Source: Verrucomicrobiota bacterium
GTDB taxonomy: Bacteria > Verrucomicrobiota > Verrucomicrobiia > Opitutales > Cerasicoccaceae
Reading direction: 5' to 3'
Assembly: GCA_039818205.1 (NCBI GenBank)
Contig: JBCBUK010000009.1
Span: 128,001-192,000, forward strand
Length of the DNA stretch: 64,000 nt
In this document: positions 43,320-63,616 of the stretch, in pieces
How positions within the stretch are numbered: the stretch's first letter is position 1
Layout of the letters: the number at the start of each line of letters is the position of its first letter
Translations under genes and position numbers: made by a program
The notes under the pieces: generated by a model
Databases searched by the model: none
What the model was told of the DNA's origin: nothing
Seen by the model: only the letters and a program-made list of their open reading frames with translations

Positions 43320-44759
43320 ATGAAATCCCTCGTTTTCTTTATCTTGGGCTCCATTGCCCTTACCGTCCACGCTGAGCGACCCAATGTCATTGTCTTTATG
43401 GCCGATGATATGGGTTATGCTGATGCTGGTTTCACCGGTGCGACCGATATCAAAACTCCCCACCTTGATGCCCTGGCGGCGTCTGGTGTAGTTTTCAAAC
43501 AGGGCTATGTTACGCATCCCTTTTGCGGGCCAAGTCGCGCGGGGTTTATGTCGGGTCGTTATCAGGAGCGGTTTGGTTTTGACCATAACCCAGCCTACGA
43601 TCCGGCCAATCCATTGCTGGGGATTGACCCGGAAGAGGTTCTCTTCCCCAAGCGCCTTCAGGACGCCGGCTACTATACTGGCATCATCGGAAAATGGCAC
43701 CTTGGGGCCGCCGCGCCGTTTAATCCGCTCAATCGCGGTTTTGACTATTTCTATGGCTTTCTCGGTGGTGGCCACGACTACTTTGACATCGATATGGCCA
43801 AGCCAGTACACACTGCTTACTTGCAGGGGCTAGTTCGAAACAAGCTCCCGGCGGGATTTGAGGGATATATTACAACGGCACTGAGCCGCGATGCGGTGAA
43901 GTTTGTGGAAGACAATAGCGACAAACCATTCTTTCTTTTCGTTGCTTACAATGCACCTCATGGTCCGCTGCAAGCACCCCAGGAGGACATCGATCGTTAC
44001 TCTCATATCGAGGATCGCAAGCGGCAGATATATGCGGCGATGGTCGATGTGATGGACCGCGGGATTGGCGAGGTTGTTGCTGCATTGAAAGAGGAAGGTG
44101 TATACGAAAACACGTTGATTTTCTTCCTCAGTGACAATGGCGGTCCTCAAACGGTGAGTTGGAACCCGCACAATTGGAATGGCTCGTCGAACGGACCCCT
44201 TCGCGGTGGAAAAACGAATCTGTACGATGGCGGCGTACATGTGCCGTTCATTGCCTCCTGGCCAAAAGGGATTAAGCCTGGCCAGACTTTTGATTTCCCG
44301 GTGATCTCGTTGGACATCGGGCGAACGGCAGTTGAGCTGGCTGGAGGAGACCCGGAAAAGGGCCATGTGATGGAAGGTGTAAATTTGATTCCGTTTCTGA
44401 ATGGAGATCGTTCGGACGCTCCGCATGATGCGCTCTACTGGAAGTCCTATGGTAACTGGTCGGTCCTAAGCTCAGCGGGATACAAGCACCTGAAGGACCC
44501 TTCCAGCCGTGATATTGAGTTGTTCTTTTTGCCTGATGATATTGGGGAGGAAAACGACATGCTCAGCAATCAAGCTGAGGTGGCATCGCAGCTGCGGAGC
44601 AAGTGGGAGGCTTGGAATGCGGAGAATGTGCCTGGGCGTTTGGGTGGCTACATGCAATATTTCATCAAGCGTGATGACTTTTTCTATGACGCGATTCCCC
44701 AGGCGGCTATTGATGCCGGCTACGATCCGGAGTTTCCGCGAATGTTCAAAAAGAAGTAG
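43320..44759 (+). CDS. Formylglycine-dependent (S1) sulfatase
   Basis: [24 protein letters not shown] and SDNGG. Confidence 0.95.
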
Positions 44760-44905
44760 GTGTCGGTACAGGGTCGCGGGCGAGTGGCCGCCCTCGAGCT
44801 AGATTTCCAATAGCTGATTGGGTGCGATAAAGGATTGTCTCAATCCGAAGCATTGCTGGTATTGGAGTGAGCATTCGGTGCATTGTGGTAGCTTTTCTTT
44901 TCTGA

Positions 44906-48079
<3,174 letters not shown>

Positions 48080-48112
48080 ATTGATCGCGCCTTATTGGGT
48101 TCAAATTTTAGT

Positions 48113-49888
48113 TTAGGAGATCCCCAGCGATTCCAAACGCTTGATCTCGGTGCTCCATTCGAGGCGCTTTTCCGGGCTGTACTCGATGTCTTCCGGGAGA
48201 AGGCTTTTGCGTGTGCAATTAACCAGTGCCTGCAGGGCTTGATAGCGCCGCGTCTCTTCGATTGCCGGGGGGATCAAGTCTTCGATGATCGCCAGGATTT
48301 CTTCGTGGGAAAGCGTCTGCGGTTGTGCACTGAGCTCGCTCCGAATGCCTGCGAACATTGCTGCGGAGTAGTCCCGCATGACCTCGCTGAGTGAATCCAG
48401 TATCTCATCGGTCATGGGCTCTTGGAGAAATTTTTCAACGGTCCAGCGAACAAATGCTCGGTGGTCGTCGCCTTGAGGATCAAGAACCGGGATGATTAGG
48501 CTTCCCGTGCGCCCGGGGCGTCGAATGTCGGGCGACAGCAGGTGAATTCGCGCGGTGATCAGCAGCCAGGTTAGCTTACCTTTCATTCGCGGGTCGGACA
48601 TCAGTTCCTGCATTTTACCGGTCAACCGACGTTCGGTGGCGTGTTCGTTCGCACCGATTCGGCCAAACTGCGTATCTGCCTCATCGACAAAGATCAATGC
48701 TCGGCCAATCGACATCAATACACGGCGCAATTTTTCAAACAGAACATCCGTTTGTCCGAACCATTGGGAGCGAATGTTTTTTATGGTGAGCACCACGATT
48801 CCCAGCTCGCCTGCGACCGCCTCGAAAATATAAGACTTACCCGAACCAATTGGGCCGGCGATCGCGGCTCCAGTCAGCGCGTCTGGTCCGCTGCTACGTA
48901 GGCGCGGAATAAACTGCGTTGTCAGGAATTCTTTGAGCTTGGAAGCACCCACGACGTCGGCCATGGACTGACTCGGCTTTTTAAACTCTATCACACCACT
49001 GCCAATCTGATCGATGATGTAGTCTTCGACTTTCTTGATTACGTCTTCATGGCAGATCGATGTTTCGGAGTAAACGGCTCCCATGAGTAGCTGGCGCAAG
49101 GCATATAGCGATAAGCCTGCGGTAAGCGATGCGAGCTCTTCACTCGACATATCGAGTGAGAGATTCTGTTCATGCTGGTTTTGTTGGAACCAAGAGATAA
49201 AGGCCAATCGTTGATCGCGATCAGGAGCATCGACTTCGATCGCCAGGGTTTGCGGGAGCTGGGTTATGCGATGGTTGATCTGACTCTTGGCCTCGGCAAT
49301 CAGAATGAGTGAGTCGGATGCCTCCGCAAACGCTGGATCTGAGAACCACTCTTGAACGAGGCTTACTCGGTAGCGATCGCGTTCGGAAAGGGAAGCAACG
49401 GTGCCCTCGGGTAAAATGATGTCGGCGCTTTCAACAATAATTATCAACCGGTTTTCGTAGTGGCCTTTGCGGGAAGCGATCGTTAGCTGCCGGAGGATCT
49501 CAAGGGCTTTTAGGCTGTCTCCAATGGCGCTGCGGATACGCTCCTGCAGGCTGGGTGGGCTTGGGTCGACCTGATGCCCGAGCATGACTTTGATTGCCCG
49601 ATCATCTCGACTATCGACACCCCTCAAGGCATCCCATGCTTCCGACAACGGCTCGAGGTGTTCGTCGGGTATGCGAATCAAACCGTTGGGTTCGTAGTGG
49701 ACGACGACATAGCCAGGGAGTGTCCAGCTCTGATCGAGAAGCGCGGTTAAGTTTACATAGTCTTCCGTGTCGCCGCTACGGAACGAAAATAGATCATGCA
49801 CATTTCCGTAGAGGATCAGTGACCGGCTCTGACCAGAATTGATGATGCGCCCTGCGCTGCGTAGAAACTGGTTGTTGTTTTTTGTCAT
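48113..49888 (-). CDS. Classical-clade AAA+ ATPase with degenerate N-terminal AAA-like domain
   Basis: GPIGSGKS, pore loop SQWFGQT, IFVDEAD and SRH DIRRPGR; N-half LILYGNVHD / LIIIVESAD lacks the Walker A Lys. Confidence 0.88.
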   Translation of the reverse strand: MTKNNNQFLRSAGRIINSGQSRSLILYGNVHDLFSFRSGDTEDYVNLTALLDQSWTLPGYVVVHYEPNGLIRIPDEHLEPLSEAWDALRGVDSRDDRAIKVMLGHQVDPSPPSLQERIRSAIGDSLKALEILRQLTIASRKGHYENRLIIIVESADIILPEGTVASLSERDRYRVSLVQEWFSDPAFAEASDSLILIAEAKSQINHRITQLPQTLAIEVDAPDRDQRLAFISWFQQNQHEQNLSLDMSSEELASLTAGLSLYALRQLLMGAVYSETSICHEDVIKKVEDYIIDQIGSGVIEFKKPSQSMADVVGASKLKEFLTTQFIPRLRSSGPDALTGAAIAGPIGSGKSYIFEAVAGELGIVVLTIKNIRSQWFGQTDVLFEKLRRVLMSIGRALIFVDEADTQFGRIGANEHATERRLTGKMQELMSDPRMKGKLTWLLITARIHLLSPDIRRPGRTGSLIIPVLDPQGDDHRAFVRWTVEKFLQEPMTDEILDSLSEVMRDYSAAMFAGIRSELSAQPQTLSHEEILAIIEDLIPPAIEETRRYQALQALVNCTRKSLLPEDIEYSPEKRLEWSTEIKRLESLGIS

Positions 49889-49902
49889 GGTTTAGCTTTC
49901 CA

Positions 49903-50799
49903 TTAACTTACGGTATCCTGGCCATAATCCGAACCAAAAGCCGCCTCGATGACTTTCGATTTCTCCTGGGAAATTACCGTTGAATCTTTTAGGTCGTCGG
50001 GCTTGAAAACGGGTTGAGCTTCGTCAAAAACAATGCTGGCACCGTTGCCGTCCCGTCCCCTCTGGGACAAGCCAATGATTCGGTCGCCGACAAATATTGC
50101 TTCCTCAATCTCGTGTGTGACGATGATAATCGTGTGCGGTGGGCGCTCGCCTTTTTCTTTTGCAACCTGGTTTTGATGGTAGAGCTCGAGCAAGAGACGT
50201 TGAAGGGATTCGCGGGTCGCTTCATCAAGTGCACCGAAGGGTTCGTCCATCAACAATATCTGTGGGCGCATGACCAGGGCCTGAGCAATCGCAACCCGCT
50301 GGCACATGCCGCCTGACAATTCGGTTGGGTAGTTATGCATGGCTTTGGCCAGGCCAACTCGTGTGAGAATCTCTTCGCTCTTTTCGAGATGTGCTTTGCG
50401 CAGCTTGCGCCACGCAAAGGGATTCAACCAGCGAAAGTGGGGCTCCGTTTCGTCTAGCATTAAGCCAAAGGCCACGTTTTGCAATGCGGTGAGATGCGGG
50501 AACAACGAGTAGCGTTGATAGACGATTCCACGATCACGGCCAGGTCCATTAACGCTCATCATCTGATCTGTGTCCTTATTCCAGACTTCGATTGATCCCG
50601 AAGTTGGCTCGAGGGTGCCCACGATGCAATTGAGCAAGGTGGACTTTCCGCAGCCGCTGGGACCAACGAAGGCAACGATTTCTCCAGGCTCGATGGTCGT
50701 ATCGATTTGGTCTAGTACGCGATGACTACCAAACTGCTTGGAAACGTTCTTGATCCGGATCGCGGGGTGCGATTCGGAGGCGTTTACTTCTTGCTCCAT
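49903..50799 (-). CDS. ABC transporter ATP-binding protein (NitT/TauT type)
   Basis: GPSGCGKST, LSGGM, LLMDEPFGALD and VTH. Confidence 0.95.
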   Translation of the reverse strand: MEQEVNASESHPAIRIKNVSKQFGSHRVLDQIDTTIEPGEIVAFVGPSGCGKSTLLNCIVGTLEPTSGSIEVWNKDTDQMMSVNGPGRDRGIVYQRYSLFPHLTALQNVAFGLMLDETEPHFRWLNPFAWRKLRKAHLEKSEEILTRVGLAKAMHNYPTELSGGMCQRVAIAQALVMRPQILLMDEPFGALDEATRESLQRLLLELYHQNQVAKEKGERPPHTIIIVTHEIEEAIFVGDRIIGLSQRGRDGNGASIVFDEAQPVFKPDDLKDSTVISQEKSKVIEAAFGSDYGQDTVS

Positions 50800-51629
50800 G
50801 GACTGATTTGGGTTTGTAGGATCTTGATACCCGCATCGAGGGCGAAGGCCAGAAAAGCCAAAATCAAAAGGTAGGGATAGACGACAGTCATGTCCAACTT
50901 ACGTGAGAATAAGCGGATCGTATAGCCAAAGCCGACATTGGCGACCAGGAGTTCAGCCGCAAGGAGATAGACCAGGGCGGGGCCGATGTTCGATTTGATG
51001 ATCTCCATGATACGGGGTGCCTTGACAGGGAGGAAGGCATCAACGATGACCTCAAGATGCGACGCACCTAGCGAGTAGGCTTTGTACCGCAATTCCTTTG
51101 GAAAGGAGGCAATCTCTTGAGATACACCAATAGCGATAGCCGGCAGAGTCCCGAACACGATCATCGCAATATACATTGTCAGGTTGGTTCCCGCCAAAAC
51201 GAAAAATACCGCTAGTGCCGCGGTTGGAATAATGCGTGACGCCAATCGCAGGGGAAGGACAGCGAGGGACTCAAGGCTGAGGAATGACCCCATCAACACT
51301 CCGAGTAAGAGGCCACCAGCAACGCTGACGCCATACCCGGCGACGAATCGAATCCCTGTGGCCTTGAGATCGCGCCAGAGCATGGGAGCGCGCTCTTCGG
51401 CTTTAACATCCTCGCCCAAAGCGGCAGCTAGTAAGTCATTTTGAGGTTCTGGTTTTTCCAGGATTTGCTTCAACCCTTCGGCGAGACCGGACCACGTAGG
51501 AATGGTTCGATCCTCCGGGTTGTCACGGTGTTTGCTTTCGGAAAGCAGGGTATAGCCGAGCAAAAGCAAAAAGATCGATAGCGCCTGGAGGACCAGGCGC
51601 TTCCGACGGGATATAGGCTGTTGCAGCAT
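50784..51629 (-). CDS. ABC transporter permease (NitT/TauT type)
   Basis: About six TM helices, EAA-like KAYSLGAS and AAELLVANVGFG. Confidence 0.9.
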   Translation of the reverse strand: MLQQPISRRKRLVLQALSIFLLLLGYTLLSESKHRDNPEDRTIPTWSGLAEGLKQILEKPEPQNDLLAAALGEDVKAEERAPMLWRDLKATGIRFVAGYGVSVAGGLLLGVLMGSFLSLESLAVLPLRLASRIIPTAALAVFFVLAGTNLTMYIAMIVFGTLPAIAIGVSQEIASFPKELRYKAYSLGASHLEVIVDAFLPVKAPRIMEIIKSNIGPALVYLLAAELLVANVGFGYTIRLFSRKLDMTVVYPYLLILAFLAFALDAGIKILQTQISPWSKK

Positions 51630-51650
51630 TCGCGGATCGTTTAGCGAAAA

Positions 51651-52682
51651 CTACTTTTTTGCAACCTGCTTAATGTAGGACGGGTCAAAGCTTAGGTTGG
51701 TGCCCGGATTGCTTTTACCGAAGGCTAGACTTGGGTTCTCGGCTACGATTCCTTGTTTGACGCAAAACTTGCTGACCTTGTCCATGGTCTTCGGCAATGC
51801 CTCGCTTTCAAACAGCGCCTGGCCTTTTTCGGGTGTGTCATAGAAGCGAGTTTCTTTGACGATTGTTCGCATATCAGCGAGGCCCAGCTTGGAGAAACGT
51901 TCGCCGAGGGCGATCAATGCTTGATCTCGCGTCTTGCTTTGAGTCATTAACCCACAGAATCGATAGTAAGTATCGATAACGGCGCAGGCAAAGGCTTCAC
52001 CACCTTCCTTGTCGAGTGACTTACGGCTCATGGTGACCATATCAATAATCTCATTCGGAATCGACTTCGAGCTGAAGAGCATCAGTGAGTCCTTGTCCTG
52101 AGACTGAATTTCCAGGCAGAAGGGATTCCAGACAACGATTGCGTCGACCTTGCCTTGGAGGAACGCGGTTGAAGCCGCTGCTGGATCCATCATGCTGAAG
52201 TTGAAGGCCGCTGGATCCATTCCCTGGTCTTCGATGTATCGGTCAAAGAGGTACTGGCTCACTGAGTTCTCTAAGCCATAGACCGGCACCTCTTTGATCT
52301 CGTCGAGCGTGGTGTATTTTTTGGTTACGATGCATTGGTCGGCTCCATCACTGGTGGAGGTTGGGAGGATGGCCACAGATTCGATTTGGAGGCTGGGAGC
52401 CAGCGAATCCATGTTCGTTAGGCAGGCAGCGTCGACTTGTCCGGATCCGTAGAGTGTAATGCACGTGTCGTAGTCTGTCTCAACGAGGACGATGTCGACC
52501 TCCCATTTCTTTTCTATAGGGCCCATCTTGCCTTCATCCATGTTGATGAGTCCAAGGTCGCTCGCAGTCAAAAAGAGGCTCCATGAAGGATACTCGCTGA
52601 CGGCTAGCTTAAAGGTGGGGGCGGCGCTGAGGCTGCCTGCCCCGATAATCAATGAGGTTAAAATCGCGGTGGTTATTTTCAT
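51651..52682 (-). CDS. ABC substrate-binding protein (NMT1/SsuA-like; resembles urea-carboxylase-region SBPs)
   Basis: Signal peptide, SEYPSW, TNMD, STSDGAD, VVWNP and IPNEIID. Confidence 0.85.
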   Translation of the reverse strand: MKITTAILTSLIIGAGSLSAAPTFKLAVSEYPSWSLFLTASDLGLINMDEGKMGPIEKKWEVDIVLVETDYDTCITLYGSGQVDAACLTNMDSLAPSLQIESVAILPTSTSDGADQCIVTKKYTTLDEIKEVPVYGLENSVSQYLFDRYIEDQGMDPAAFNFSMMDPAAASTAFLQGKVDAIVVWNPFCLEIQSQDKDSLMLFSSKSIPNEIIDMVTMSRKSLDKEGGEAFACAVIDTYYRFCGLMTQSKTRDQALIALGERFSKLGLADMRTIVKETRFYDTPEKGQALFESEALPKTMDKVSKFCVKQGIVAENPSLAFGKSNPGTNLSFDPSYIKQVAKK

Positions 52683-52749
52683 GTTCAGTGTGGGTTGGGT
52701 TTCTGATGCAAACAGTCCAAATGGTATTGGACTATTGTTATCTAAAATT

Positions 52750-52766
52750 AAATTGTAACACAATTT
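52750..52766. promoter_or_regulatory. Perfect 7-3-7 palindrome in an internal AT-rich spacer
   Basis: AAATTGT-aac-ACAATTT; second hairpin AGTCCAA-atggta-TTGGACT at about 52714-52733. Confidence 0.45.
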
Positions 52767-52805
52767 CTCCGCAGCTGAGGCTGCTCTAGTGCGCCGGGGC
52801 TGCTT

Positions 52806-53621
52806 TTAGTCAGGTAGCTTGTCGGTGCGCTTGGTCTCAGTTTCGGGCTCTGATTCTTCGACGGGTGCGGATTCCGCGCCAAAAATCAAGTCATCAAACT
52901 CTGACCGAGCAACGCTTTCTTCGGCGAGGTTAAGGAACTCAGCCTCTTCAGCGATAACGTTTGTTCCAGCCAATTCACTGGTGATTTTTGCCTGTGAGCT
53001 AACCTTTTGCACGCGGTCACGGAGAGAAGACAACTGTTCAGCTGAATCGTCCTTACCGATCCCGGCTAGCGCTTCACTGACCTCCCGTTGGTGCTTGGCC
53101 ATAGTGATCTCTGCCACGGCTTGATGCTTTTCGGCTTTGATCTTTTCAAGGTCACGTTGAAAGTTGATCAGCTGTTGCTTGTAGCCGTTAACTTGCTTCT
53201 GTCCCGATTCAATGTCGGATTCCAAATCTTGTAGATGGGACTTCTTTTCTTCGAGTGTTGAGCTGAAGTTCTTGAACGCTTCCATGGCGCGAACGTATTC
53301 CGGGCTAGCGGCGGCTTCTTCTTTGGACAAGCCTTGTGCAGCCTTCTTGGCATAAGCAACCGCGCCAACCTTCTTCTTCTCCAACTCACTAATGTCGGCG
53401 AGCAGCTTTTCGGCTTGGTTGCTCTTACGCTCTTGCTGGGCCATGAGGCCAGCGACGGCATCGCGGATGTCCCGCACTTGGCGTGTCTTTACTTCGATGA
53501 CCTCGTTGTATTCCTCGCGAACAACGTGCGTGTCCTCCGCAATGGAATCGGTTTTCTCATTGATCCGTCCGGTAAAAAGTCGGCCAATGGTTTTAAATAA
53601 ACGGCTGATTGCTTTGATCAT
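52806..53621 (-). CDS. PspA/Vipp1 (IM30) family protein
   Basis: Amphipathic N-helix (ISRLFKTIGRLFTG), long helical hairpin with AVAGLMAQ, late AKITSEL...EAEF helix and acidic tail; 271 aa. Confidence 0.75.
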   Translation of the reverse strand: MIKAISRLFKTIGRLFTGRINEKTDSIAEDTHVVREEYNEVIEVKTRQVRDIRDAVAGLMAQQERKSNQAEKLLADISELEKKKVGAVAYAKKAAQGLSKEEAAASPEYVRAMEAFKNFSSTLEEKKSHLQDLESDIESGQKQVNGYKQQLINFQRDLEKIKAEKHQAVAEITMAKHQREVSEALAGIGKDDSAEQLSSLRDRVQKVSSQAKITSELAGTNVIAEEAEFLNLAEESVARSEFDDLIFGAESAPVEESEPETETKRTDKLPD

Positions 53622-53633
53622 AGTAGAAGTTGA

Positions 53634-54389
53634 TTAATGTTTAAGATGGTAGTCTGGGTTTTCCCAGGATTCGATCTGCTTTTTGACACGCTCGGAAATC
53701 TCAAGTTGGCTTTCCAGTTCCTCACGGATGCGGGCGGTTTCCACCGATTGTTCTTTCTGTTGGTTCTTGATGAATGAAATGATCGTTTTCTCCAGGGATT
53801 GGATACTCGCTTCGGTATCGTTCAGCAGCGCGGTGCGCTGAGCCAAAATTTCTGCGCGTAGTTCGGGGATCTCGGTTTTCTCGGAGCGGTTCCAGAGACT
53901 CCACGATTGTTCGAGATTGGACACGCTTGCCTCGATTAAAACTTCGGATTGCGCCATGATTTCGGCAACTTGATAGGAGGTCGATCTTGGGCTGAGCTCG
54001 TCCTTGAGTGCTTTCTGCAACTGCAGCAATCGATCGAACATCTGCTCGGTTCGCGGATCCTGGTCGCGGGTCAACCGCTGTCGGGTTTCTTGCAGGTAGG
54101 CGGAGGCCTTGGCTTCGATTTCGGCGGTCACATTGTTGAGTAAGCGTTGCTTGACGGCATCGAGATTGCCCCAGGTAAGGCAGACCCGTGTCAGGTAGGC
54201 TCCGAGCGATAATAGGCCGAGGCCCAGCCCAGCCGCTGTAAGCCAAGGTGATGAGCGATTGATAACCCACGGTAAAAAGGTGAGGGGGACGGCAAAGAAC
54301 ATCGGTATCAAGCTGTTGGCCGGCTTGATGAACAATTCGTCCTTGAGTTGTTTGTTCAACCATTGCTTGTTGGGTAACTCATTCTTCAT
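53634..54389 (-). CDS. Two-TM membrane protein with cytoplasmic coiled coil
   Basis: Two N-terminal hydrophobic segments followed by about 180 aa of helical sequence. Confidence 0.75.
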   Translation of the reverse strand: MKNELPNKQWLNKQLKDELFIKPANSLIPMFFAVPLTFLPWVINRSSPWLTAAGLGLGLLSLGAYLTRVCLTWGNLDAVKQRLLNNVTAEIEAKASAYLQETRQRLTRDQDPRTEQMFDRLLQLQKALKDELSPRSTSYQVAEIMAQSEVLIEASVSNLEQSWSLWNRSEKTEIPELRAEILAQRTALLNDTEASIQSLEKTIISFIKNQQKEQSVETARIREELESQLEISERVKKQIESWENPDYHLKH

Positions 54390-54402
54390 GCCTTACCAGC
54401 TG

Positions 54403-55989
54403 CTAATAAGGGATTTGGCCCGCTTCAAAAAGCAAATTCAGCACGGACCAATCATTAACGTCTGATAGTTTCGCCTCGACCCGCAACCGTTCGGAGGGGA
54501 TTCCGTTGGCGATTAGGAAATCGGCGGCGGTGCGGGCCCGCTTCTCCGCAAGCTCTAGCGCGATTGCGTCCAGTTCCGCATTGTCGTTTTTCAGGGATTG
54601 TCCCCGGATGGTAATGTAATAAGAAGGCCAATCCTGGAGGCGTTGAGCAAGGTCGGTTAGCTTGCGCTCATTTTGGAGCGTGATTTTCGCTGACATGCGG
54701 GGAAAGCGAATTTGCTCAACGTGGAAATTGGCCACCGGGCGCAGACGCTGCCATTCGGGATCACTCAGGGCGCGAAGCTTATCGGTGGAATCCGCTGCCT
54801 CAGCGGGTAAGTTCAGGTCGGTGGCAATGATGTTCAGTTTCTTTCTGGGATGGAAACCATCGGCTTTCATACCCTTGAAAATTCGATCAAAGAGGATCGT
54901 GGTTGGATTTCCGTCCAACGGATCTTCCTTTAGCATCCCGACCTGAATCATGATTTTGGTGATTTTCGTGACGATGTCTTCCAGGGATTCGTTCTTTGAA
55001 GGAATGACTCCAAAGTAGCCATAGTTATCGGTGGTGTTTTTCCAGCTGATGCCGTTGACGATGTTCTCGGCGTGTTCGACACTGAGTTTGCCGGTTGGGC
55101 CAGCATCCTTTTGCACGAGGCTGACCATGCTTCCCTCGGATTGGTGAAGGTAAAGAGCCCGGCAATACATCTCGACAAAGATATTAGCGACGTCGGGGTG
55201 CTCTCGAAGAAATTCACGATTCACGACAAGGACATCCATGATGTAGCCGCGCATCTTGGAACTATCGAGCAATACGTGGACGTCGCCAAGTTCCAGAGAT
55301 TCGCTCACCTGGGGCTCCCACAGAACATAGGCCGTTGGCTCATTCGGGCTGGATCCCTTCATTCGCTCAAAGACTTCTTCAGAGCCTTGTTCCTTGATGC
55401 GCCAGTCGTCAGATAGTCGCGGAAAAATAAAACTCTCGATCGTGACCTCCGCCAGAAATTCCGAGGGAGAATCCGGTGTGTAAACGATCCGTGCTTCCGG
55501 GTTGTCCAGGTCTTGCAGGGCGGCTAATCCCTGTTTGTAGGCAACGATGGCATCGGCACCTTGAGTTTCATCGATAACTAACACGATGGTTGCGGGAAAA
55601 CTACCTAGCTTTGCACCGGCCTGGATAAAAGAGTTGATCGGAAATACGGCAAAGTCGGCCTTGTCAGACTCCAGTGCCTGCATGCGTTTCTGATAATTTG
55701 CCTGGTCATCAATGACATCCAGGCGGATTTTTTCATTTTTTAGCAGTTGGCGAAACTCGGGAGAGCGCAGGATGGAATATCCGGAAAACCCATCGGCATA
55801 CAGCGTCACGGTATGATCGTAATTGCTCGATGCGCTGGTGTCTGCGATCAGGCTTTCCTCTTCTTGCTGTTCCTTTTGCTGATTGAGCATCGGTGCGATC
55901 ACGTAGCGATAAGCCACCCCGCCGATCGCGAGCAGAACACACCACGCAATCAGCGCGGCAATAATTCCTTTTTTACTCCGTGTCCCCAT
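54403..55989 (-). CDS. Membrane-anchored NMT1-like solute-binding protein fused to degenerate OmpA-like domain
   Basis: N-terminal TM, DGFSGY, IDETQGADAIV and VLWEP; C-terminal IRF...LAEKRARTAADFLIANGIPSERL. Confidence 0.8.
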   Translation of the reverse strand: MGTRSKKGIIAALIAWCVLLAIGGVAYRYVIAPMLNQQKEQQEEESLIADTSASSNYDHTVTLYADGFSGYSILRSPEFRQLLKNEKIRLDVIDDQANYQKRMQALESDKADFAVFPINSFIQAGAKLGSFPATIVLVIDETQGADAIVAYKQGLAALQDLDNPEARIVYTPDSPSEFLAEVTIESFIFPRLSDDWRIKEQGSEEVFERMKGSSPNEPTAYVLWEPQVSESLELGDVHVLLDSSKMRGYIMDVLVVNREFLREHPDVANIFVEMYCRALYLHQSEGSMVSLVQKDAGPTGKLSVEHAENIVNGISWKNTTDNYGYFGVIPSKNESLEDIVTKITKIMIQVGMLKEDPLDGNPTTILFDRIFKGMKADGFHPRKKLNIIATDLNLPAEAADSTDKLRALSDPEWQRLRPVANFHVEQIRFPRMSAKITLQNERKLTDLAQRLQDWPSYYITIRGQSLKNDNAELDAIALELAEKRARTAADFLIANGIPSERLRVEAKLSDVNDWSVLNLLFEAGQIPY

Positions 55990-55995
55990 GGGTTA

Positions 55996-56739
55996 TTATT
56001 CACCAAGCGGTTGATTACCCGATTCCGAAAGTGCGTCGATTGTTGAAAGTGCCGCATCGTTGTTCGGGAAAAATGCCAGATAGTCGTAAGGGGATTCTCC
56101 TGCTGCATCAAGATCTGTATTGCTGGAGACCTCTGCGATAAAGGTGGTGACGGCGGCATCGAGTGATTTGACGTCTTTGGCGCCAACGTACTGATGAGCC
56201 GCGTCTTTAAGGCTGTGGTCGTTGGCCATGCCGACGCCAATCACGTTTAGTGTAATACCACGGGAGACCAGCTCCGGAGCATAGTTAAGCATCAGCTTGC
56301 CGTCGGTTGATTCGCCATCGGTGATGACTATGAGGCGATAGGTTCCGTAGTTGAACTGCTTAGCACGCTCGGCTAGCAGGCTGTCGGCGCCGGTTTTCAA
56401 GAATGTGCCGAGTGGTGTCTTGCCTCCTTGCTTGATCCGCTTCACCTGTTTGCGCACTTTGGTTTTGTCCAATGGTCCGAGCGGGTACGCCCAACCGTTA
56501 ACGTTCTTGCTAAAAACCAGGAGACCAAATTGCGTATCATCGGGCAGCTTTTTGAGTGCTTGGTAAACGGAGTTTTTCGCTGCTTGCATCTTGCTCTTGT
56601 CATCGATCATACCCGACATGGACCCGGATCCGTCGAGGATTACGACGACGTTGTCCAGATTGTTGCTCTCCTGGGCCTGAAGGGCAGCCGCGCAAAGAGC
56701 ACCCAGTATCAACTGGAAAACTATTTTAAACTTGCTCAT
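55996..56739 (-). CDS. Secreted von Willebrand factor A domain protein
   Basis: Signal peptide; intact MIDAS (DGSGS, GKTPL, ITDGE). Confidence 0.92.
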   Translation of the reverse strand: MSKFKIVFQLILGALCAAALQAQESNNLDNVVVILDGSGSMSGMIDDKSKMQAAKNSVYQALKKLPDDTQFGLLVFSKNVNGWAYPLGPLDKTKVRKQVKRIKQGGKTPLGTFLKTGADSLLAERAKQFNYGTYRLIVITDGESTDGKLMLNYAPELVSRGITLNVIGVGMANDHSLKDAAHQYVGAKDVKSLDAAVTTFIAEVSSNTDLDAAGESPYDYLAFFPNNDAALSTIDALSESGNQPLGE

Positions 56740-56757
56740 AGAGATTTCGGTTAGGCT

Positions 56758-58590
56758 TTAAAAGTCGAAGTCGGAGGAGTTTTGAGCCTCCGCGGAGACA
56801 CGAACCAAGAGGAACTCAACCCGCCGATTTTCCGCGGCTTCGGCAGCATTGGCCGGCTTCGGGTTGACGGGCTCACGGATACCGACACCAACGGCTTGGA
56901 TCTGCGTGATATCAAGCGGGATACCTTCCGCGCCAGCATACTCAGAAATGGCCGATTTAACAGATTCGGCCCGCGAGCGCGATAGGTTGAGACCGGCTTG
57001 CATAACCTGACGTGGGCTTTGGCCCCGGTAGCTCACCCGGTCAAAGGTTCCCTTTTGGATCAACTCGGTCAAATACTTGGTGTTGTTGACGTCCAGGCGA
57101 CGTCCATTGAGGAAGTAATTGTAGTTCCCCTGGCTACCCGTCTGTTTGATGATACCTTCTTCCATCCCGCCACGAACTAAGGTCAGTAGGGTTAGGGTTG
57201 GGTCGGTGTGCCCGCGGACGGCGATAACGGCGTTACCATACTGTTGGACAAGCTCCAGGACTTTGGTGAATTCAACTCCATATTGAACAGCGCTAAACTC
57301 GTTCTGGTTCGGTTCAAACGAAATGACCACGCTGTAGATAACGTTGTTCGCGAGGTCGCCGCTCAAATTCAGCGATTCAAGCTCCTCGAGCGTGGCTTCA
57401 GCGTTAAAGCGTGGCTGCTGAGCCACACTGGTTTTGCTCAGATACTTGGTGAAGGCGTCTGAATTCCAATCGAGGGGCGAGGGCACAAAGCCCTGCCGAA
57501 CCGATGCGTAGCCACGCACTTGGGCGAGATCGAGTGACTTCTTCTGGAAGGCATCGAATCCGCGATAGGGATTGCTGTTGGAAAAGAATGCGATGTTACC
57601 CGGCTGGCCAACAAATGTGCAGTCTAGTAGCAAGCCATGGGCGTCCGCTTCCAGTGAGGGAATCACGTCCTCGCCGTAGATGTCCTGGGTCAATTGCAAG
57701 AGTTCCATGTACTTCTGGTTTCCCTTGGTCTCGTACTCCTTCTGCAGGTCGATGACTTCTTCAGCTGCTTTGAGGTAGCCCGCGGCGAACTTGGTCACCC
57801 AGTCCTTGTTGGCGTTGAACCAATCACCGCGGCATGCGTAGACGTCAGCGATGGAGTAGGAGCGCTCCGCGGTCGAGGCAAGGACCCGGGCACCGCGCAC
57901 GGTTCCCTCGATGCCGTTGCCCATGCTTTGCAGGCCTCCAGTTAAGCCTAGCATATCGGGCGTAATCACAAATGCTACGTCAACGTCGTCGCGTTGGCGA
58001 AAAATCTCGGCCGGGCTGTCGGCGCTACCGGTTAGGTCCTTAGCCCAAACGACATCGATATCGTCCCAGGAAAGACCGGCATCCCGTAGTAAGTCATCCA
58101 ATAGCCCTTCGTGGGGGCCCGCCTTTTGCAATACGACCGTTGCACCTTTGAGGTCCGCGAGTGTCTTGATGTCGTTACGAGCAACCGCATGGTCTCCAGC
58201 ACTCCAGGTCATTTGCATGATGATGACTGGCTTGGTTTCGGGTGAGCTTCCAATGACTTCGGAGGCCATACCAATCATACGATAGGTACCTCGGAGAAAG
58301 GGGCTCTTGCCCTCCATATAGTCGCGAACCTGCTGGACGAAGTCATCACCCGGAACCAGGTCTATATCCAGCCCTTGCTGCGCATAGATACTGCTCTTTT
58401 GGGTTTTGAGGCCACCGTTGGCGTAGAAGGTCGCCATGTCTCCGCCCCAGACGATGAAGGGCACTTGAACTGCCTTGGTTTTGGCGACCGGCTTTACGGT
58501 GACGGGACCAACGACATCTTGGAAGGATTCAGCGTGCAACGGGAGGCTGACAAGCGATAAAACGAAAAGAATAGCGTAAAACTTTTTCAT
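56758..58590 (-). CDS. Exported NMT1-like solute-binding protein fused to OmpA C-terminal domain
   Basis: Signal peptide, TWSAGDH and IADV; FEPNQ, GHTD, LSRSRAESV, GVG and NRRVEF. Confidence 0.85.
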   Translation of the reverse strand: MKKFYAILFVLSLVSLPLHAESFQDVVGPVTVKPVAKTKAVQVPFIVWGGDMATFYANGGLKTQKSSIYAQQGLDIDLVPGDDFVQQVRDYMEGKSPFLRGTYRMIGMASEVIGSSPETKPVIIMQMTWSAGDHAVARNDIKTLADLKGATVVLQKAGPHEGLLDDLLRDAGLSWDDIDVVWAKDLTGSADSPAEIFRQRDDVDVAFVITPDMLGLTGGLQSMGNGIEGTVRGARVLASTAERSYSIADVYACRGDWFNANKDWVTKFAAGYLKAAEEVIDLQKEYETKGNQKYMELLQLTQDIYGEDVIPSLEADAHGLLLDCTFVGQPGNIAFFSNSNPYRGFDAFQKKSLDLAQVRGYASVRQGFVPSPLDWNSDAFTKYLSKTSVAQQPRFNAEATLEELESLNLSGDLANNVIYSVVISFEPNQNEFSAVQYGVEFTKVLELVQQYGNAVIAVRGHTDPTLTLLTLVRGGMEEGIIKQTGSQGNYNYFLNGRRLDVNNTKYLTELIQKGTFDRVSYRGQSPRQVMQAGLNLSRSRAESVKSAISEYAGAEGIPLDITQIQAVGVGIREPVNPKPANAAEAAENRRVEFLLVRVSAEAQNSSDFDF

Positions 58591-58861
58591 GACAGTTGGT
58601 ATTATCTAGTTCCGGTCCTTATGTGCCAGAACGCCTCCGATAATGCCAGAAGATTACGCGACTTGAATATTACAAAACCGATTCAATATTATAAAGGCTA
58701 ATGCGGATGTTGATGCAGTACTACTTGTTTAATGCTCCCAATAGAAACGGATCTACTTCTTTTTCAGGTAGTTAGGTGCATTAAAACCGAAACCATTTAA
58801 GGGAATGAAACATCGATAAGCCATTCAAGTATCCATTTGCGTAACTCTAGAAAGGTGAGTT

Positions 58862-59491
58862 TTAATCGTCAAAGTGAACGATGCCGTCGCGAATCGCTTT
58901 GATTGCCGCCTGAGTCCGATCTGCCGTTCTCAGTTTATCCAATACCCGCGACACGTGTAGCTTCACGGTGCCTTCCGATATTCCGAGATCCTCCACGATT
59001 TCTTTATTGCTGCGTCCATGGACGATCAGGTGAAGAACCTGATGTTCGCGATCGGTTAGCGATTCACGAGATTCCCGTGTTGAAAGTTTTTCGGCCATTG
59101 CGGCGGGAAAGTAAGTGCCGCCAGCGGCGATCTCGCGAATGGCGTCGAGGACTTCCTCGATATCGCCCCGTTTGTTCAAATAGCCTTGGGCTCCAGCTTG
59201 GACCGCGTTCCAAATGTCTTCTTCGCCCTCAAAGACTGAGAGCAGCACGATCTTTGCATCCGGAAACTCGGCGATGATTTTTTTGGTGCCTTCGATTCCG
59301 TTCTCGCCCGGCATTTGGTAATCCATCGTTACCACGTCGGGGGTCAACTCCCGATAGCAGTTGATGGCGCTCGAACCGTTGTCCGCTTCTCCGACGACCT
59401 CAAGGTCTTCCTCGGATCCGACTGCTTCCGCGAGGCCCATGCGGAGTATGGAGTTATCATCGACAACCATGACTCGGATTTTCTCACTCAT
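58862..59491 (-). CDS. NarL/LuxR-family response regulator
   Basis: VVDD, MD receiver and LTDREHQVL...SNKEI...TVKLHV HTH. Confidence 0.95.
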   Translation of the reverse strand: MSEKIRVMVVDDNSILRMGLAEAVGSEEDLEVVGEADNGSSAINCYRELTPDVVTMDYQMPGENGIEGTKKIIAEFPDAKIVLLSVFEGEEDIWNAVQAGAQGYLNKRGDIEEVLDAIREIAAGGTYFPAAMAEKLSTRESRESLTDREHQVLHLIVHGRSNKEIVEDLGISEGTVKLHVSRVLDKLRTADRTQAAIKAIRDGIVHFDD

Positions 59492-61590
59492 TCTGTTTCG
59501 GGTTTGTTTTGGGGGTCGTAGGGCAGTTCAACGAAAACGTTGGTGCCCTCTCCAATCGTGCTCTCAATTTTAAGGTGCGCTTGGATGCGGTTGGAACGCT
59601 CACGCATCCCTTGCAGGCCGAATCGTTCTGACTTGTCCAATTCGTTCAAATTGAATCCGCTGCCATTGTCAGAAACTCGCAAAATCGTTTTGTTCGGCTG
59701 AAAGTTTAGCTCAATGTGGACTTCCGTGGGCACGGCATGGCGGACCGCGTTAGTGACCGCTTCCGTCGCAATTCTCAATAGATGCCGTTCCTCGTATTGC
59801 TGTAGGCGTCGACGATTGCCTCGGACCGTTAGCTCAATACCCGCCTTACTTTCGATTTTTAACGGGGCAATAGATTCCTGAATGGCATCGGCCAGGTCCA
59901 TCGTTTCCAAGGGGCCACCGCGCAGATCCAGGATCGAGTTGCGGGATTCCTCACGGCAATAGCGCAACATGCCTTGAGCCTGCCGTAGGGCCTCTTTGCC
60001 TTTTTCAGGATCGGAATCGATCTTTCGATTGCAGCTGCGTAACTGCAAAGTCATACCGGCTAGTCCTTGCTCCAGCGTATCGTGTAGGTCGCGAGCAATC
60101 CGCTGGCGCTCCTGTAGAATGGACTCGCGCTCGATCTGGTCGCTAATAATGGCCGTTTGTTTGGCGACGTTCTTTCTTAGTAACACGATCCAAATGAAAA
60201 ATAGCGCGGCGATCGCCAAGACGATGGTCATTAGCCAAAGCAAACGAGCGGTTGTCCACCAGGGGGCGGATTGTAGCACAGCCACTCCATCAAGAGGTCG
60301 CAAATCCAGCCATAGAGACTCCGAGAACATTTGCCACCGAGTATCCTCATTGCGCACGAGATTGCAGATGCCGATTAATTGGAGCACGGCTCCCGCGCGC
60401 AATTCACCGTCGATAGCCATGCCCGTGGGCAGGCGGGCTTCGAAGACGCGATCACCGGCCTGGCAAAGGAGGCTCAATCCGTCGGGTTCTATCGAATCAC
60501 CGGCGGCTTCACTCGAGAATCCAGATAGCCTGAACGATTCTCCAATGTTCACTAAGGTCGCCGTTACTTCGACGAGTTCATAGTTCCAATCGGGGTCGAT
60601 TGGGTCCCGTAGGTCAATCTTGTGCGGCTTGGGTGGGGGACGTTTTTCCAGCACGCTAACTTCCCGAGCTCGAAAGGCCGGGCTAATTGGTTGAGCTTGG
60701 ATGAAACCCAGCATTTCAACGAAATCACCCGGCTCAAGGCTTAGGTTGCCAAGTGTTGTGACTTTGAGGCTAGCCCGTTTTCCTCGAAGGTATAGGCGAT
60801 CCTCGTTTGAGTAGGTGACAAGTCCGCGTGTGTTGAGCGCCTTTTGGTAGTTTGCCCCGGTTCGCATGAGATGCTCGATGGGGCGCAAATCGGTGTAATC
60901 CAACTCGGTGTCTTCGCTGTTTAGAGTAAAGTCGTCCACTGAATTGGTGACGAATACGCGGCCAGTCATCTGCCGGTGCTTGTTGAACACTGTCCCGACG
61001 ACTGCTCGAAATTCTACGCGTTGAAACAACATATCCGAGAGCTGGTCGTAGGCTCCCTTCGAATAGGGAATTTGCACCGTGATGATCGAATCATGTGCTT
61101 CCAGAATAATAGCGATATGGTCCAGGTCTTGCGCAACGCTCAAATCAATGATGCGCCCCCAGGAGTATACCCATTCGGCATCGAGTTCAGTCGACGGGCT
61201 AGTCAGCTCAAATTGGTGAAATTTTCGAGGTTTCGGGAGTGGCCCCCAATCGAGAACTTCCAGCTCATCGCAGTGGATGACGGGGACGAATCCACCCGGT
61301 GAAGAGTGTCCCTTGATCTTGATGATGGAACCTACCGTGAGTTCTTCATTCACATATTTCGTTCCGGGAAGCTCAATGTAGATCCCGAGTTCTCCGTCGA
61401 AGATGAAGCCCCCGTTCCGGCGGGGATTCAAATGGATAACCTGGGCCTCAATTTCGACCGTAATTTTTTGGGCGGCGGTTGTGGGGTCTAGATTCTTGAC
61501 GGCCTTGATCGTCGTAATGGTCGCGCCAGAACAGACCGTGAACGATAGAGCGCTCAGGAGTATGATGACCAGGGCTTTGCGAACGAGCAT
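59488..61590 (-). CDS. Sensor histidine kinase (HisKA_3) with large periplasmic region
   Basis: ERQRIARDLHDTLEQ, EAVTNAVRHA, DNGSGF and GLQGMRER; single TM after PWWT. Confidence 0.93.
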   Translation of the reverse strand: MLVRKALVIILLSALSFTVCSGATITTIKAVKNLDPTTAAQKITVEIEAQVIHLNPRRNGGFIFDGELGIYIELPGTKYVNEELTVGSIIKIKGHSSPGGFVPVIHCDELEVLDWGPLPKPRKFHQFELTSPSTELDAEWVYSWGRIIDLSVAQDLDHIAIILEAHDSIITVQIPYSKGAYDQLSDMLFQRVEFRAVVGTVFNKHRQMTGRVFVTNSVDDFTLNSEDTELDYTDLRPIEHLMRTGANYQKALNTRGLVTYSNEDRLYLRGKRASLKVTTLGNLSLEPGDFVEMLGFIQAQPISPAFRAREVSVLEKRPPPKPHKIDLRDPIDPDWNYELVEVTATLVNIGESFRLSGFSSEAAGDSIEPDGLSLLCQAGDRVFEARLPTGMAIDGELRAGAVLQLIGICNLVRNEDTRWQMFSESLWLDLRPLDGVAVLQSAPWWTTARLLWLMTIVLAIAALFFIWIVLLRKNVAKQTAIISDQIERESILQERQRIARDLHDTLEQGLAGMTLQLRSCNRKIDSDPEKGKEALRQAQGMLRYCREESRNSILDLRGGPLETMDLADAIQESIAPLKIESKAGIELTVRGNRRRLQQYEERHLLRIATEAVTNAVRHAVPTEVHIELNFQPNKTILRVSDNGSGFNLNELDKSERFGLQGMRERSNRIQAHLKIESTIGEGTNVFVELPYDPQNKPETE

Positions 61591-61930
61591 TTCTAGGTTA
61601 ATATGGATGTTTTGGTATGTTTTCCAAGACCGGAAAGAGCAACGCTTCTAGGGATTCTATGGTCATTCCTGGAGACCAAATTGCTTAGCCTTGGAAACCC
61701 GGCATATAGCTTCCAGCGATTTATCAGGTCTTCGCCTTCTCTCTGTGAGAAGATTGATGCGGTCTCTTTTGGGGCGGGCCTATACCCCCAGAATCTCTAG
61801 GAATAATATTCAATCGATGATTCTCATTGATAAAAGGTTATGGACTCTGAGGTAGGGTTTACCCTTGATTATTTACAATTCTTAAACAGTCTTAAGTGTC
61901 TTCGGCAATCTGTACAAGCAGCTTATTTTT

Positions 61931-63616
61931 ATGTCATTTCATTCTCTTGATTTTTTCAAAATTTCCGCGGTCGCTCTTGCACCATTAGCGATCGTTCCTG
62001 AAGTCTTTGGCACCCAGGCTTACTACGATTTGACGGTCTACAACGACTTTGCCAATGGCGAATATTATGGTGCCACCCCGTCAAGCTCTGACATCTGGTT
62101 GTTGAGCAATTTCGAATTCGATTACAACACTTCATCTGGATTCGTTAAGGGCAATTCGAGCGCCGGTACCTATGGTACGGCGGTTCGGCTGAGCGATATT
62201 GACGGCGGAAAAATGCGCATCTACTCCACTGATGGTGGCACACGCATCTATTCGGTACTTAGCCAAGGCAGTACCGCTCCGACCTTCTCCGATTTGGACT
62301 CGAAGCCAAATAACTATTTTGAGTGGAGCTTCTCCAGTAGTAATCCGGGTACCCTCGATATGAGTTGGATTGACAGCTTCGACTATCTGTCGCGCTTGAA
62401 GGTATCAGCGAAGGGAACGTCTAGTCCGGCACCAACAATCGTTACCTTTGGTGCGGGCTCTTCGAAAACAACGCAACAAGTTGGCAGCGCGTTGAATACG
62501 TATGTGAATCAAACGGGAGGAAATTACTCTTGGTTGGGAACCAGTGGCTATTCTACATCGATAAGCTATACCGGGGCTACCAACGCTGTTCGATGGATTA
62601 CCAATAATTCCGGTACGGCTGGGTCCATCAATGCTCAGAACAACAAGAGCTACACGCGGGGATTGGATAATATCATCACCGAAGCGAGTAACAGCACGCA
62701 TGTTTGGAAGGCCGGAACTCCCGCCACGGGTCCGAACTGGACCGACAAGGGATTCCGTATATCAGGTTTGCAAGGAGTCAGTCCGCCGGATGGTTCAACG
62801 CTGTCCGATACAGCAACGATGTGGTCAGCCTACGTCAACTTCACCAAGGATCAGGGGACGGGCAAATACACGATGGTGGTCACCGAATTCACGATCTATG
62901 GCGGAACGGGAACCAATGCATCGTATAAGCAGTTATGGACTGCTGGTGCTACGACCTACTCGGTGACCCAAGATGATGGTGCCCTTGACGCGATTTGGAC
63001 TTCAAGTGTCAACAACTTGTCGAGCACACCGGCTTGGATTACGAACCTTGGCGCGAACAACAACAACTTATTCTACGCGCTCTATAATGCCATCGCCTCG
63101 GGCGTCATCTACAATGATGACTTTGTGAGCGACACTACCTTACCGAGCTGGACGGGTTACGTTCCCTACGTAGCAGGTCAGCAAATCTATAATTTCGAAA
63201 TCCTGTTTCAGGGTGGTCAGGTTGACCAAAGTACCTATCCAGGTGGATTGACGGGCAATCTGACCGGGACGGATTTGGTCGCATTGATGAAAGCGCGGGA
63301 CTCCGCGGATGACCTTATCAATCCTTACTTTCTGGAGCTTCTCAGCGTAATGCACCAAACGCCGGCCTATTTGTTTCCTTCCCAGGATTTCTGGGGATCT
63401 GAGTCTCTCGGCAGCGATTCTTATATTGGCCTTCAGCCAGGTCCGCTCAACGGTGATGATGTGTTTGGAGATGCGACGTTTGATTGGTATCTCGGGAGCA
63501 AAGGAAGCGACCTGGTCATCCCAGAACCGCGCACTGCAGTTGCTTTTGGAGCCGGAGCACTTGCCCTCGCGGTTTACATGCGACGACGAAGAAAAGGGCA
63601 GAAATCCGAATCTTAG
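61931..63616 (+). CDS. Large PEP-CTERM protein with possible GH64/thaumatin-like domain
   Basis: Signal peptide; C-terminal IPEP + TM + RRRRK; motifs RIY, YFEW..WIDSF and NPY...AYLFP. Confidence 0.8.
   Translation: MSFHSLDFFKISAVALAPLAIVPEVFGTQAYYDLTVYNDFANGEYYGATPSSSDIWLLSNFEFDYNTSSGFVKGNSSAGTYGTAVRLSDIDGGKMRIYSTDGGTRIYSVLSQGSTAPTFSDLDSKPNNYFEWSFSSSNPGTLDMSWIDSFDYLSRLKVSAKGTSSPAPTIVTFGAGSSKTTQQVGSALNTYVNQTGGNYSWLGTSGYSTSISYTGATNAVRWITNNSGTAGSINAQNNKSYTRGLDNIITEASNSTHVWKAGTPATGPNWTDKGFRISGLQGVSPPDGSTLSDTATMWSAYVNFTKDQGTGKYTMVVTEFTIYGGTGTNASYKQLWTAGATTYSVTQDDGALDAIWTSSVNNLSSTPAWITNLGANNNNLFYALYNAIASGVIYNDDFVSDTTLPSWTGYVPYVAGQQIYNFEILFQGGQVDQSTYPGGLTGNLTGTDLVALMKARDSADDLINPYFLELLSVMHQTPAYLFPSQDFWGSESLGSDSYIGLQPGPLNGDDVFGDATFDWYLGSKGSDLVIPEPRTAVAFGAGALALAVYMRRRRKGQKSES

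Follow-up and report, generated by a model that had tools for sequence, protein, structure and literature searches.

A nine-gene bacterial operon uniting a PspA paralogue, a tandem AAA+ ATPase and an ABC transporter as a candidate envelope-remodelling module

In a window of 64,000 nucleotides (the whole stretch of DNA that we analysed) from a Verrucomicrobiota bacterium (GenBank assembly GCA_039818205.1, contig JBCBUK010000009.1, positions 128,001 to 192,000 of the forward strand), nine open reading frames (ORFs) lie on the minus strand, running from 58590 to 48113. In order of transcription they encode SO1, a vWA protein, SO2, the membrane protein TM2, a PspA paralogue, a substrate-binding protein (SBP), an ABC importer permease, an ABC ATPase and an AAA+ ATPase. 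The gaps between them are 18, 6, 13, 12, 123 (counted to the ATG at 52682), 21, -16 and 14 nt. An earlier note on this DNA, which had described nine co-oriented, close-packed genes within the same limits, with one overlap and one spacer of about 123 nt, was accurate on each of these points. The operon starts 271 nt after a two-component pair, is limited at its 3' end by a convergent beta-galactosidase gene and has the GC content of its surroundings. The nine genes are a real unit of a kind known in silico, and a shorter sister version of it was printed in 2024.

We collected related loci in two scans: a PspA-anchored genome scan, represented by the best 80 of 185 confirmed loci and therefore biased towards similar loci, and an ATPase-anchored metagenome scan, represented by 80 of 353 loci, not dereplicated. 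Loci with enough flanking sequence to be informative numbered 52 and 29, respectively. All nine genes occurred in order in 29 of the 52 PspA-anchored loci, while 14 had only PspA and the ATPase, with or without TM2, and 9 were partial; among the 29 metagenome loci, 17 were complete, 7 had PspA and the ATPase, 3 had the ATPase alone and 2 were split. Such recurrence is beyond chance. The carriers were records titled Planctomycetota, Verrucomicrobiota, Acidobacteria, Desulfobacterales, Omnitrophota and others, and they include a cultured, named species with all nine genes (record titled Desulfosudis oleivorans, L067). The ATPase was present in 9 of 401 genomes in an even sample of the window's phylum; in a Planctomycetota sample, 20 of 401 genomes had it at 700 bits or more, and 34 more had weaker matches only. 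Within the stretches fetched around these ATPases, PspA was found in 7 of 8 loci of the window's phylum and 16 of 19 Planctomycetota loci. The complete set of nine was there in 1 of the 8, several of which lay on short contigs, and in 6 of the 19. In contrast to the frequencies of 9 of 401 and 20 of 401 in these samples, the ATPase was present in all ten genomes tested, nine of which had none in the fetched PspA locus; one of these ten ATPases was split over two frames and one was partial. A single-protein query did not find this PspA in 40 relatives. An SBP of the operon type (>400 bits) occurred in 6 of the 401 genomes of the window's phylum, all six ATPase-positive.

Because these locus and genome counts show PspA and the ATPase persisting together without the rest, this dyad is the core of the system and the remaining genes are a frequent extension. 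The earlier note's expectation that ABC and SBP genes would accompany PspA and AAA+ genes elsewhere was borne out by the complete loci (29 of 52 and 17 of 29) and by the SBP occurring only in ATPase-positive genomes. We find reasonable its view that the system differs from an ordinary importer of nutrients, but would describe the transporter as an optional add-on, as 14 of the 52 loci had only (TM2-)PspA-AAA.

Several loci depart from the common arrangement. In L185, L187 and L188 the order is changed, with the ATPase before SO1 or before TM2-PspA. In L136 (12584-18558) and L099 (1841-5938, minus strand), a second cluster of SBP-OmpA, TM coiled-coil and vWA genes faces the PspA-AAA dyad, or the ATPase of that dyad, in convergent orientation; the L136 cluster sits behind a spermine-synthase-like membrane protein. 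In L016, L046, L053 and L055 the periplasmic arm includes SBP_bac_11-type genes, which in two of these loci, L016 and L055, were confirmed to have a vWA fusion.

Ravi et al. (2024; PMC11237479) describe, in silico only, operons with PspA, a tandem AAA protein whose first module is inactive, an ABC ATPase, a permease, PBPB-OmpA and TM-Snf7. The printed order is PspA, SBP-OmpA, permease, ABC, TM-Snf7, AAA (example OGG56892.1), and the role proposed in the passages concerned is ATP-dependent membrane remodelling. The suggestion that related neighbourhoods might appear in comparative surveys of phage shock protein systems was thus correct. PspA, an inactive and an active AAA module, the ABC ATPase, the permease, PBPB-OmpA and a TM helical protein are common to both operons, whereas the window subtype adds a second SBP-OmpA protein, the vWA protein and a free SBP, and has another TM protein. 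We found the printed order in L205 and L206, 2 of 17 fetched loci with distant ATPases; the PspA tail is different there, and their ATPases reach about 200 bits on the window-family profile compared to at least 860 for typical members. The published example therefore looks like a sister subtype, a comparison made for OGG56892.1 by its printed gene order. The terms "vWA" and "guanidin" are absent from the main text of PMC11237479, and "vWA" from one of its supplements. No experimental study of the operon was found in the literature searched, which lay mostly outside subscription journals.

The PspA paralogue (52806 to 53621, minus strand) is a protein of 271 aa that narrowly exceeds the curated cut-off of PF04012 (PspA_IM30; 34.9 vs 33.9 bits). 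A profile of its family of 111 proteins matched Vipp1/PspA chains first in the PDB (E 1.6e-6). Its AlphaFold2 model (pLDDT 79) has helices at residues 2-16, 31-95, 107-185, 193-218 and 222-246, and the ten best Foldseek rows were all Vipp1/PspA, at TM-scores of 0.39-0.46 and with high rmsd. Helix 0 is amphipathic (hydrophobic moment 0.77) and the long hairpin and helices 4-5 are present; the hairpin tip is about 30 residues longer, as read from profile alignment offsets, and an acidic linker precedes a C-terminal LPD. The PspA/ESCRT-III-like fold that the earlier note had proposed thus agrees with Pfam, the PDB profile search and Foldseek alike, and the note was also right that the operon itself contains no pspBC, pspF or liaRS-like genes. 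The same genome has a separate pspF-pspA-pspC-like locus (named from translations) and a third PspA (G000:C14:14817-16992, L083), followed directly by a 466-aa multi-pass membrane protein. For this reason we regard the operon PspA as a specialised paralogue. Like proteobacterial pspF-pspABC, the operon has a PspA fold and an AAA+ partner; unlike that system, in which PspF is a sigma-54 activator, it belongs to a genome that carries a pspF-type system separately.

The C-terminus of this PspA is conserved. It read [LI]P[ED] in 80 of 80 sequences and in 111 of 120 of a wider set, the nine exceptions being LPV/LPI (4), FPE (3) and REL/REI (2). Among 125 distinct tails, compared by anchoring on the proline, which is thereby fixed by construction, leucine preceded it in 112 and glutamate followed it in 117, and the linker varied at about 3 bits of entropy per position. 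Both REL/REI tails pair with more distant ATPases (about 420 bits). Sister-subtype PspAs, picked by eye, carry K-x-[LM]-G-[PK] in 9 of 9, and one phage PspA ends in LHE. Since a short, fixed motif ends a variable, disordered linker, we consider it a candidate docking signal for the ATPase. ESCRT-III C-terminal regions recruit Vps4 (PMC7619361). When the ATPase was modelled together with PspA residues 186-271, the prediction scored 0.00, which speaks neither for nor against binding.

The AAA+ ATPase (48113 to 49888, minus strand) is a tandem protein nearest to CDC48. Its C-terminal module is classical, with VAT, Cdc48 and p97 as best PDB matches, and the AAA motifs in their usual definitions, namely Walker A, Walker B (DEAD), an aromatic pore loop and arginine fingers (RRPGR), were each present in 54 of 54 sequences. 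Its N-terminal half matches AAA-type models and has degenerate motifs. Pfam found no DNA-binding domain and there is no hydrophobic segment. The pairing resembles ESCRT-III and Vps4 (CdvB and CdvC in archaea) in that an ESCRT-III-fold protein with a flexible C-terminal motif stands beside a classical AAA+ ATPase. By its domain make-up, however, the window ATPase is not a Vps4, as it has two AAA modules, is closer to Cdc48/VAT and lacks the MIT domain. According to a 2025 review, bacteria seem to have no Vps4-like ATPase (PMC7619361). Among archaea, Meth_adaptin loci include an SBP, and Halo_adaptin loci pair an MIT-less ATPase with a PspA-like protein, according to the passages concerned in PMC11188069.

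TM2 (53634 to 54389, minus strand; 251 aa) consists of an N-terminal hydrophobic hairpin followed by a helical bundle with a long hairpin, the latter presumably cytoplasmic, and belongs to no named family. The family comprised 390 representatives at E<=0.001, the AlphaFold2 model had a pLDDT of 91.6, and hydropathy was moderate (family peaks 1.6 and 1.9). A 19-residue hydropathy scan missed the TM2 helices, as well as the SO1 signal peptide; these calls come from a 17-residue family profile, the model and inspection. TM2 is a candidate membrane anchor for PspA. Foldseek gave no match at E<=0.001, a PDB sequence search nothing under E 0.17, and VIA-align generic helical bundles only, with residues 136-250 matching Snf7/Shrub at Z 7.5-7.9 among many such bundles. 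Only 2 of 122 members matched XpaC, weakly (hhalign 8.9%), and hhalign gave 16.7% to the sister-subtype TM protein and 0.6% to PspA. PspM was the nearest named cluster (0.85), a lead only. PF25587 was not among the 25 families shown for TM2; a separate PF25587 search matched 0 of 14 control genomes and is hence uninformative. As in ClgR-PspA-PspM of mycobacteria and xpaC-telA/yaaN of Firmicutes, a two-helix membrane protein stands beside a helical effector. In the literature passages, on the other hand, those units are not reported with this ATPase, and homology of TM2 to either was not established. Distant TM2 homologues that stand alone occur at G000:C3:776 onward (plus strand; 36 bits, full length) and at L012:19172-20065 (71 bits).

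Three further proteins are predicted to face the periplasm. SO1 (56758 to 58590, minus strand) has a signal peptide, an NMT1/SsuA-type binding domain (Pfam NMT1, 32.6 bits) and an OmpA-like peptidoglycan-binding domain with a large insertion (OmpA, E 0.048). SO2 (54403 to 55989, minus strand) has an N-terminal membrane anchor, an SBP-related binding domain (hhalign 97% to the operon SBP) and a degenerate OmpA-like domain (35 bits). OmpA domains bind peptidoglycan through the motifs G-H-x-D and L-x-x-x-RA. SO1 has the first in 40 of 40 sequences and the second in 39 of 40; SO2 has the aspartate of the first in 0 of 44 and the arginine motif in 43 of 44. The claim that both OmpA domains are wall binders suits SO1, which keeps the aspartate motif, better than SO2, which lacks it. 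The C-termini of both proteins are conserved, with DFDF in 34 of 40 SO1 sequences (window 56758-56772) and the aromatic ends PY, AY or PF in 44 of 44 SO2 sequences (window 54403-54411). The vWA protein (55996 to 56739, minus strand; Pfam VWA 71 bits) is probably periplasmic, and its MIDAS motif, in the usual definition, was intact in 40 of 41 sequences. Of 33 vWA homologues with the terminal motif, 31 have a C-terminal hydrophobic helix; the window copy ends one residue after the motif and so has neither the Pro-rich linker nor the C-terminal anchor by which its homologues are held in the membrane. The description "secreted vWA" therefore fits the window copy, which has no anchor, but not the family, which is normally membrane-anchored at its C-terminus.

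The free SBP (51651 to 52682, minus strand) is related to those of urea-carboxylase and guanidine importers. Its nearest family is TIGR03427, at 140 bits and below the equivalog cut-off of 333.9 bits. The best in-genome paralogues of the SBP, the permease (50784 to 51629, minus strand; BPD_transp_1 52 bits) and the ABC ATPase (49903 to 50799, minus strand; ABC_tran 120 bits) all lie at one locus with urea-carboxylase-like genes (named from translations). GimA of the GimABC importer binds guanidine with a KD of 97 nM, and its docked pocket consists of W59, W62, D135, F205 and D233 (PMC12704784). By spacing, these residues match W38, W41, D112, W182 and D211 of the SBP at the urea-carboxylase locus. 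The counterparts in the operon SBP, numbered from the TTG ORF and mapped through the alignment to that SBP, not aligned directly to GimA, are Y58, W61, D142, W212 and D241, three aromatics and two aspartates that are invariant in 49 of 49 sequences; SO2 has F68, Y71, D146, W224 and D252 at like positions in 44 of 44. As a best guess from these residues, the ligand may be a guanidinium-like cation. The permease has an EAA-like motif, taken in its usual definition, in 41 of 45 sequences, and Walker A, signature, Walker B and H-loop of the ABC ATPase were intact in 43 of 43. Structure searches found no close solved structure for the SBP. The operon thus keeps the five predicted ligand residues of the GimABC/TIGR03427 urea-carboxylase transporters, its nearest family; unlike those, its SBP falls under the family cut-off and it has neither guanidine catabolic genes nor a riboswitch match near it. 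A search of the genome that covered the Guanidine-I class only found no match to that riboswitch. A urea-carboxylase (guanidine-type) locus at G000:C5:271081-280000 consists of SBP, permease, ABC, creatininase-like, glutamine-synthetase-like, two small paired and carboxylase genes (named from translations).

Parts of the operon also occur on viral contigs. Eight of these carry the ATPase and seven have further operon genes: six, two of them near-duplicates, have SO2 through ABC in order, one has TM2, PspA and a partial SBP, and one has the ATPase alone. In several, an insertion ahead of the ATPase gene holds CinA-like and kinase/phosphatase genes. A T4-like major capsid gene (Gp23) was present in 2 of 5 viral contigs tested, of 436 kb and 299 kb, the latter classed as a provirus, and a tail sheath gene in 1 of 5. 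A PspA pattern scan of the viral contigs found none; divergent phage PspA genes were seen by profile. The ATPase had no phage match in GenBank. A 2026 preprint describes 15 pspA genes of huge phages that have complete ABC systems next to them, and "AAA" does not appear in its main text (10.64898/2026.10.24.761521). L162, L164 and L209 are ATPase-only contigs, and L162 and L209 share phage-like neighbours (HNH; a release factor in L209), so that the ATPase alone may travel on phages.

The reading that we favour, with about as much confidence as doubt, is that the operon is an ATP-driven, ESCRT-like module for envelope remodelling or repair. The ATPase would act on the PspA tail to turn over a polymer anchored by TM2, and a periplasmic, cation-binding arm would place or trigger the module. 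The PspA paralogue would polymerise along the inside of the cytoplasmic membrane, where the hairpin-anchored TM2 would hold it; XpaC, which occupies or adjoins the TM2 position in L022 and L055, might take over from TM2 in some genomes. The ATPase would grip the flexible LPE tail and pull PspA subunits out, doing the job of Vps4 without being Vps4. We infer, as did the earlier note, that TM2 recruits PspA and that the AAA+ protein recycles the polymer. An exchangeable periplasmic arm, made of wall-tethered SO1, membrane-anchored SO2 and vWA protein and the guanidine-type importer, would bind a small cationic, probably guanidinium-bearing ligand and so place or trigger the module where the envelope is challenged. 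XpaC in TM2's slot (2 loci) and the flotillin/YqiJ/DUF3686 genes that adjoin the operon in five loci provide an envelope-stress context, and xpaC-telA has been linked to nisin tolerance (PMC12791056). The reading is further supported by the PspA fold with its amphipathic first helix, the intact pore-loop and catalytic motifs of the Cdc48/VAT-like ATPase, the nearly obligate co-occurrence of the two proteins and the conserved PspA C-terminus. The distances of PspA, ATPase, TM2, SO2 and SBP also correlate (Spearman 0.80-0.89, 58 sequences). In addition, Ravi et al. propose the same broad role in the passages concerned (PMC11237479). Identity of the flotillin/DUF3686 cluster with the Arc3 pathway of P. 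aeruginosa was considered and rejected, as Arc3 is PA5113-14 (PMC8926400).

Several observations weigh on the other side. Every step of the mechanism is inferred. Correlated distances would arise among any genes that are linked, and related sequences do not count as independent. Three of the 29 ATPase-anchored metagenome loci have no PspA nearby, nor do 3 of the 19 Planctomycetota loci within the fetched stretch. The transporter is absent in 14 of 52 loci and the step assigned to the periplasmic arm is therefore not essential. The ligand guess depends on matching residue spacing to that of a docked model, in which the Trp/Asp positions may be general to the SBP class. TM2 could not be tied by sequence or model comparison to PspM, XpaC, Snf7 or the sister TM protein. 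Pfam found no MIT domain in the ATPase. Finally, its sensor-1 asparagine is replaced by alanine, with TAR[IV] in 54 of 54 sequences where VAT has T-N-R, and with this substitution ATPase activity is not assured.

One alternative is that the operon serves primarily for specialised guanidinium or amidine uptake. SO1 and SO2 would gather the ligand in the periplasm, and the transporter patch would be built or shielded by PspA, TM2 and the ATPase. The best in-genome paralogues of the SBP, permease and ABC ATPase at the urea-carboxylase locus, the invariant pocket residues and the intact transporter motifs are all consistent with it. It is nevertheless unlikely: no catabolic enzyme is conserved beside the operon, an Rfam scan of 44000-64000 gave no match, the genome already has a standard urea-carboxylase importer, and the PspA-AAA dyad also occurs in loci that lack the transporter, whereas every genome in which the operon-type SBP was seen had the ATPase.

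Another possibility is defence or exclusion, the membrane being sealed or remodelled at sites of phage injection or toxin attack and giant phages using the operon to shut out superinfecting phages or to maintain an energised host. The patchy spread (0 of 40 relatives by the single-protein query, 9 of 401 genomes) and the viral contigs, 7 of 8 with further operon genes and 2 of 5 tested with a T4-like capsid gene, would suit such a role; PADLOC, however, gave generic ATPase matches only, and the neighbours in the window are not a defence island. We hold this to be rather improbable as a separate explanation, and it is compatible with envelope remodelling as the purpose of the latter.

It could also be speculated that the ATPase holds PspA inactive or loads it, in the way of PspF, and is not a disassembler, or that it acts on TM2 or the transporter as substrate. 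Binding of PspF is known to inhibit the assembly of PspA (PMC7619361), and the invariantly non-canonical sensor-1 and degenerate first module point the same way. The invariant Walker A and B, pore-loop aromatic and arginine fingers argue instead for threading, and the ATPase has no DNA-binding domain; we therefore think this option decidedly improbable. A MoxR-type AAA+/vWA chaperone pair that assembles the transporter is scarcely credible: the vWA protein has an intact MIDAS, shares an operon with an AAA+ gene, and such pairs are known (10.64898/2026.09.08.750141, PMC8926400), but it has a signal peptide and is probably periplasmic, the ATPase lacks a hydrophobic segment and is Cdc48-like rather than MoxR-like, and dyad loci have no vWA gene.

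Returning to envelope remodelling, we can outline a bolder form of it, which is doubtful as a whole. The ATPase would be a Vps4 analogue that bacteria evolved themselves and that reads a subtype-specific PspA tail code (LPE here; K-x-L-G-P and REL in sisters) to turn the polymer over. Joined to it would be a guanidine importer put to new use, along with wall-tethered receptors, for sensing threats or cargo of a cationic, guanidinium type, and giant phages would have captured the whole machine and use it on the envelope of their host. The operon bears on the question of how bacterial ESCRT-III polymers are disassembled: it offers a two-protein test system of one PspA and one cognate ATPase, with a three-residue tail open to deletion or to exchange among subtypes. 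From the guanidinium-type pocket a ligand can be guessed at, and the presence on giant phages suggests a role in infected cells. As far as the printed passages go, the PspA tail motif, the guanidine-type paralogy and pocket, the loss of the vWA anchor and the operon genes on viral contigs are additions to them.

The 123-nt spacer (52683 to 52805, minus strand) between the pspA and SBP genes contains three hairpins. Only 2 of 200 shuffles were as stable as the real sequence (fold z-score -3.67), and by its predicted fold the spacer possibly tunes expression of pspA relative to the downstream genes. Counts of promoter-like and terminator-like sites did not clearly exceed those in shuffled sequence (5 vs 8.1 and 18 vs 13.1), and no match to any plasmid was found.

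In the window, the neighbours of the operon are the beta-galactosidase gene, a sulfatase-like gene and the two-component pair. The latter (58862-61590, minus strand), a NarL/LuxR-type response regulator and a HisKA_3 kinase, lies directly upstream and is co-oriented with the operon. It is not a conserved neighbour and was rejected as a part of the operon; it could regulate the operon in this genome. Divergent from the pair, a gene at 61931-63616 (plus strand) encodes a secreted protein of 561 aa that has no Pfam match and a tail that we take to be PEP-CTERM-like.

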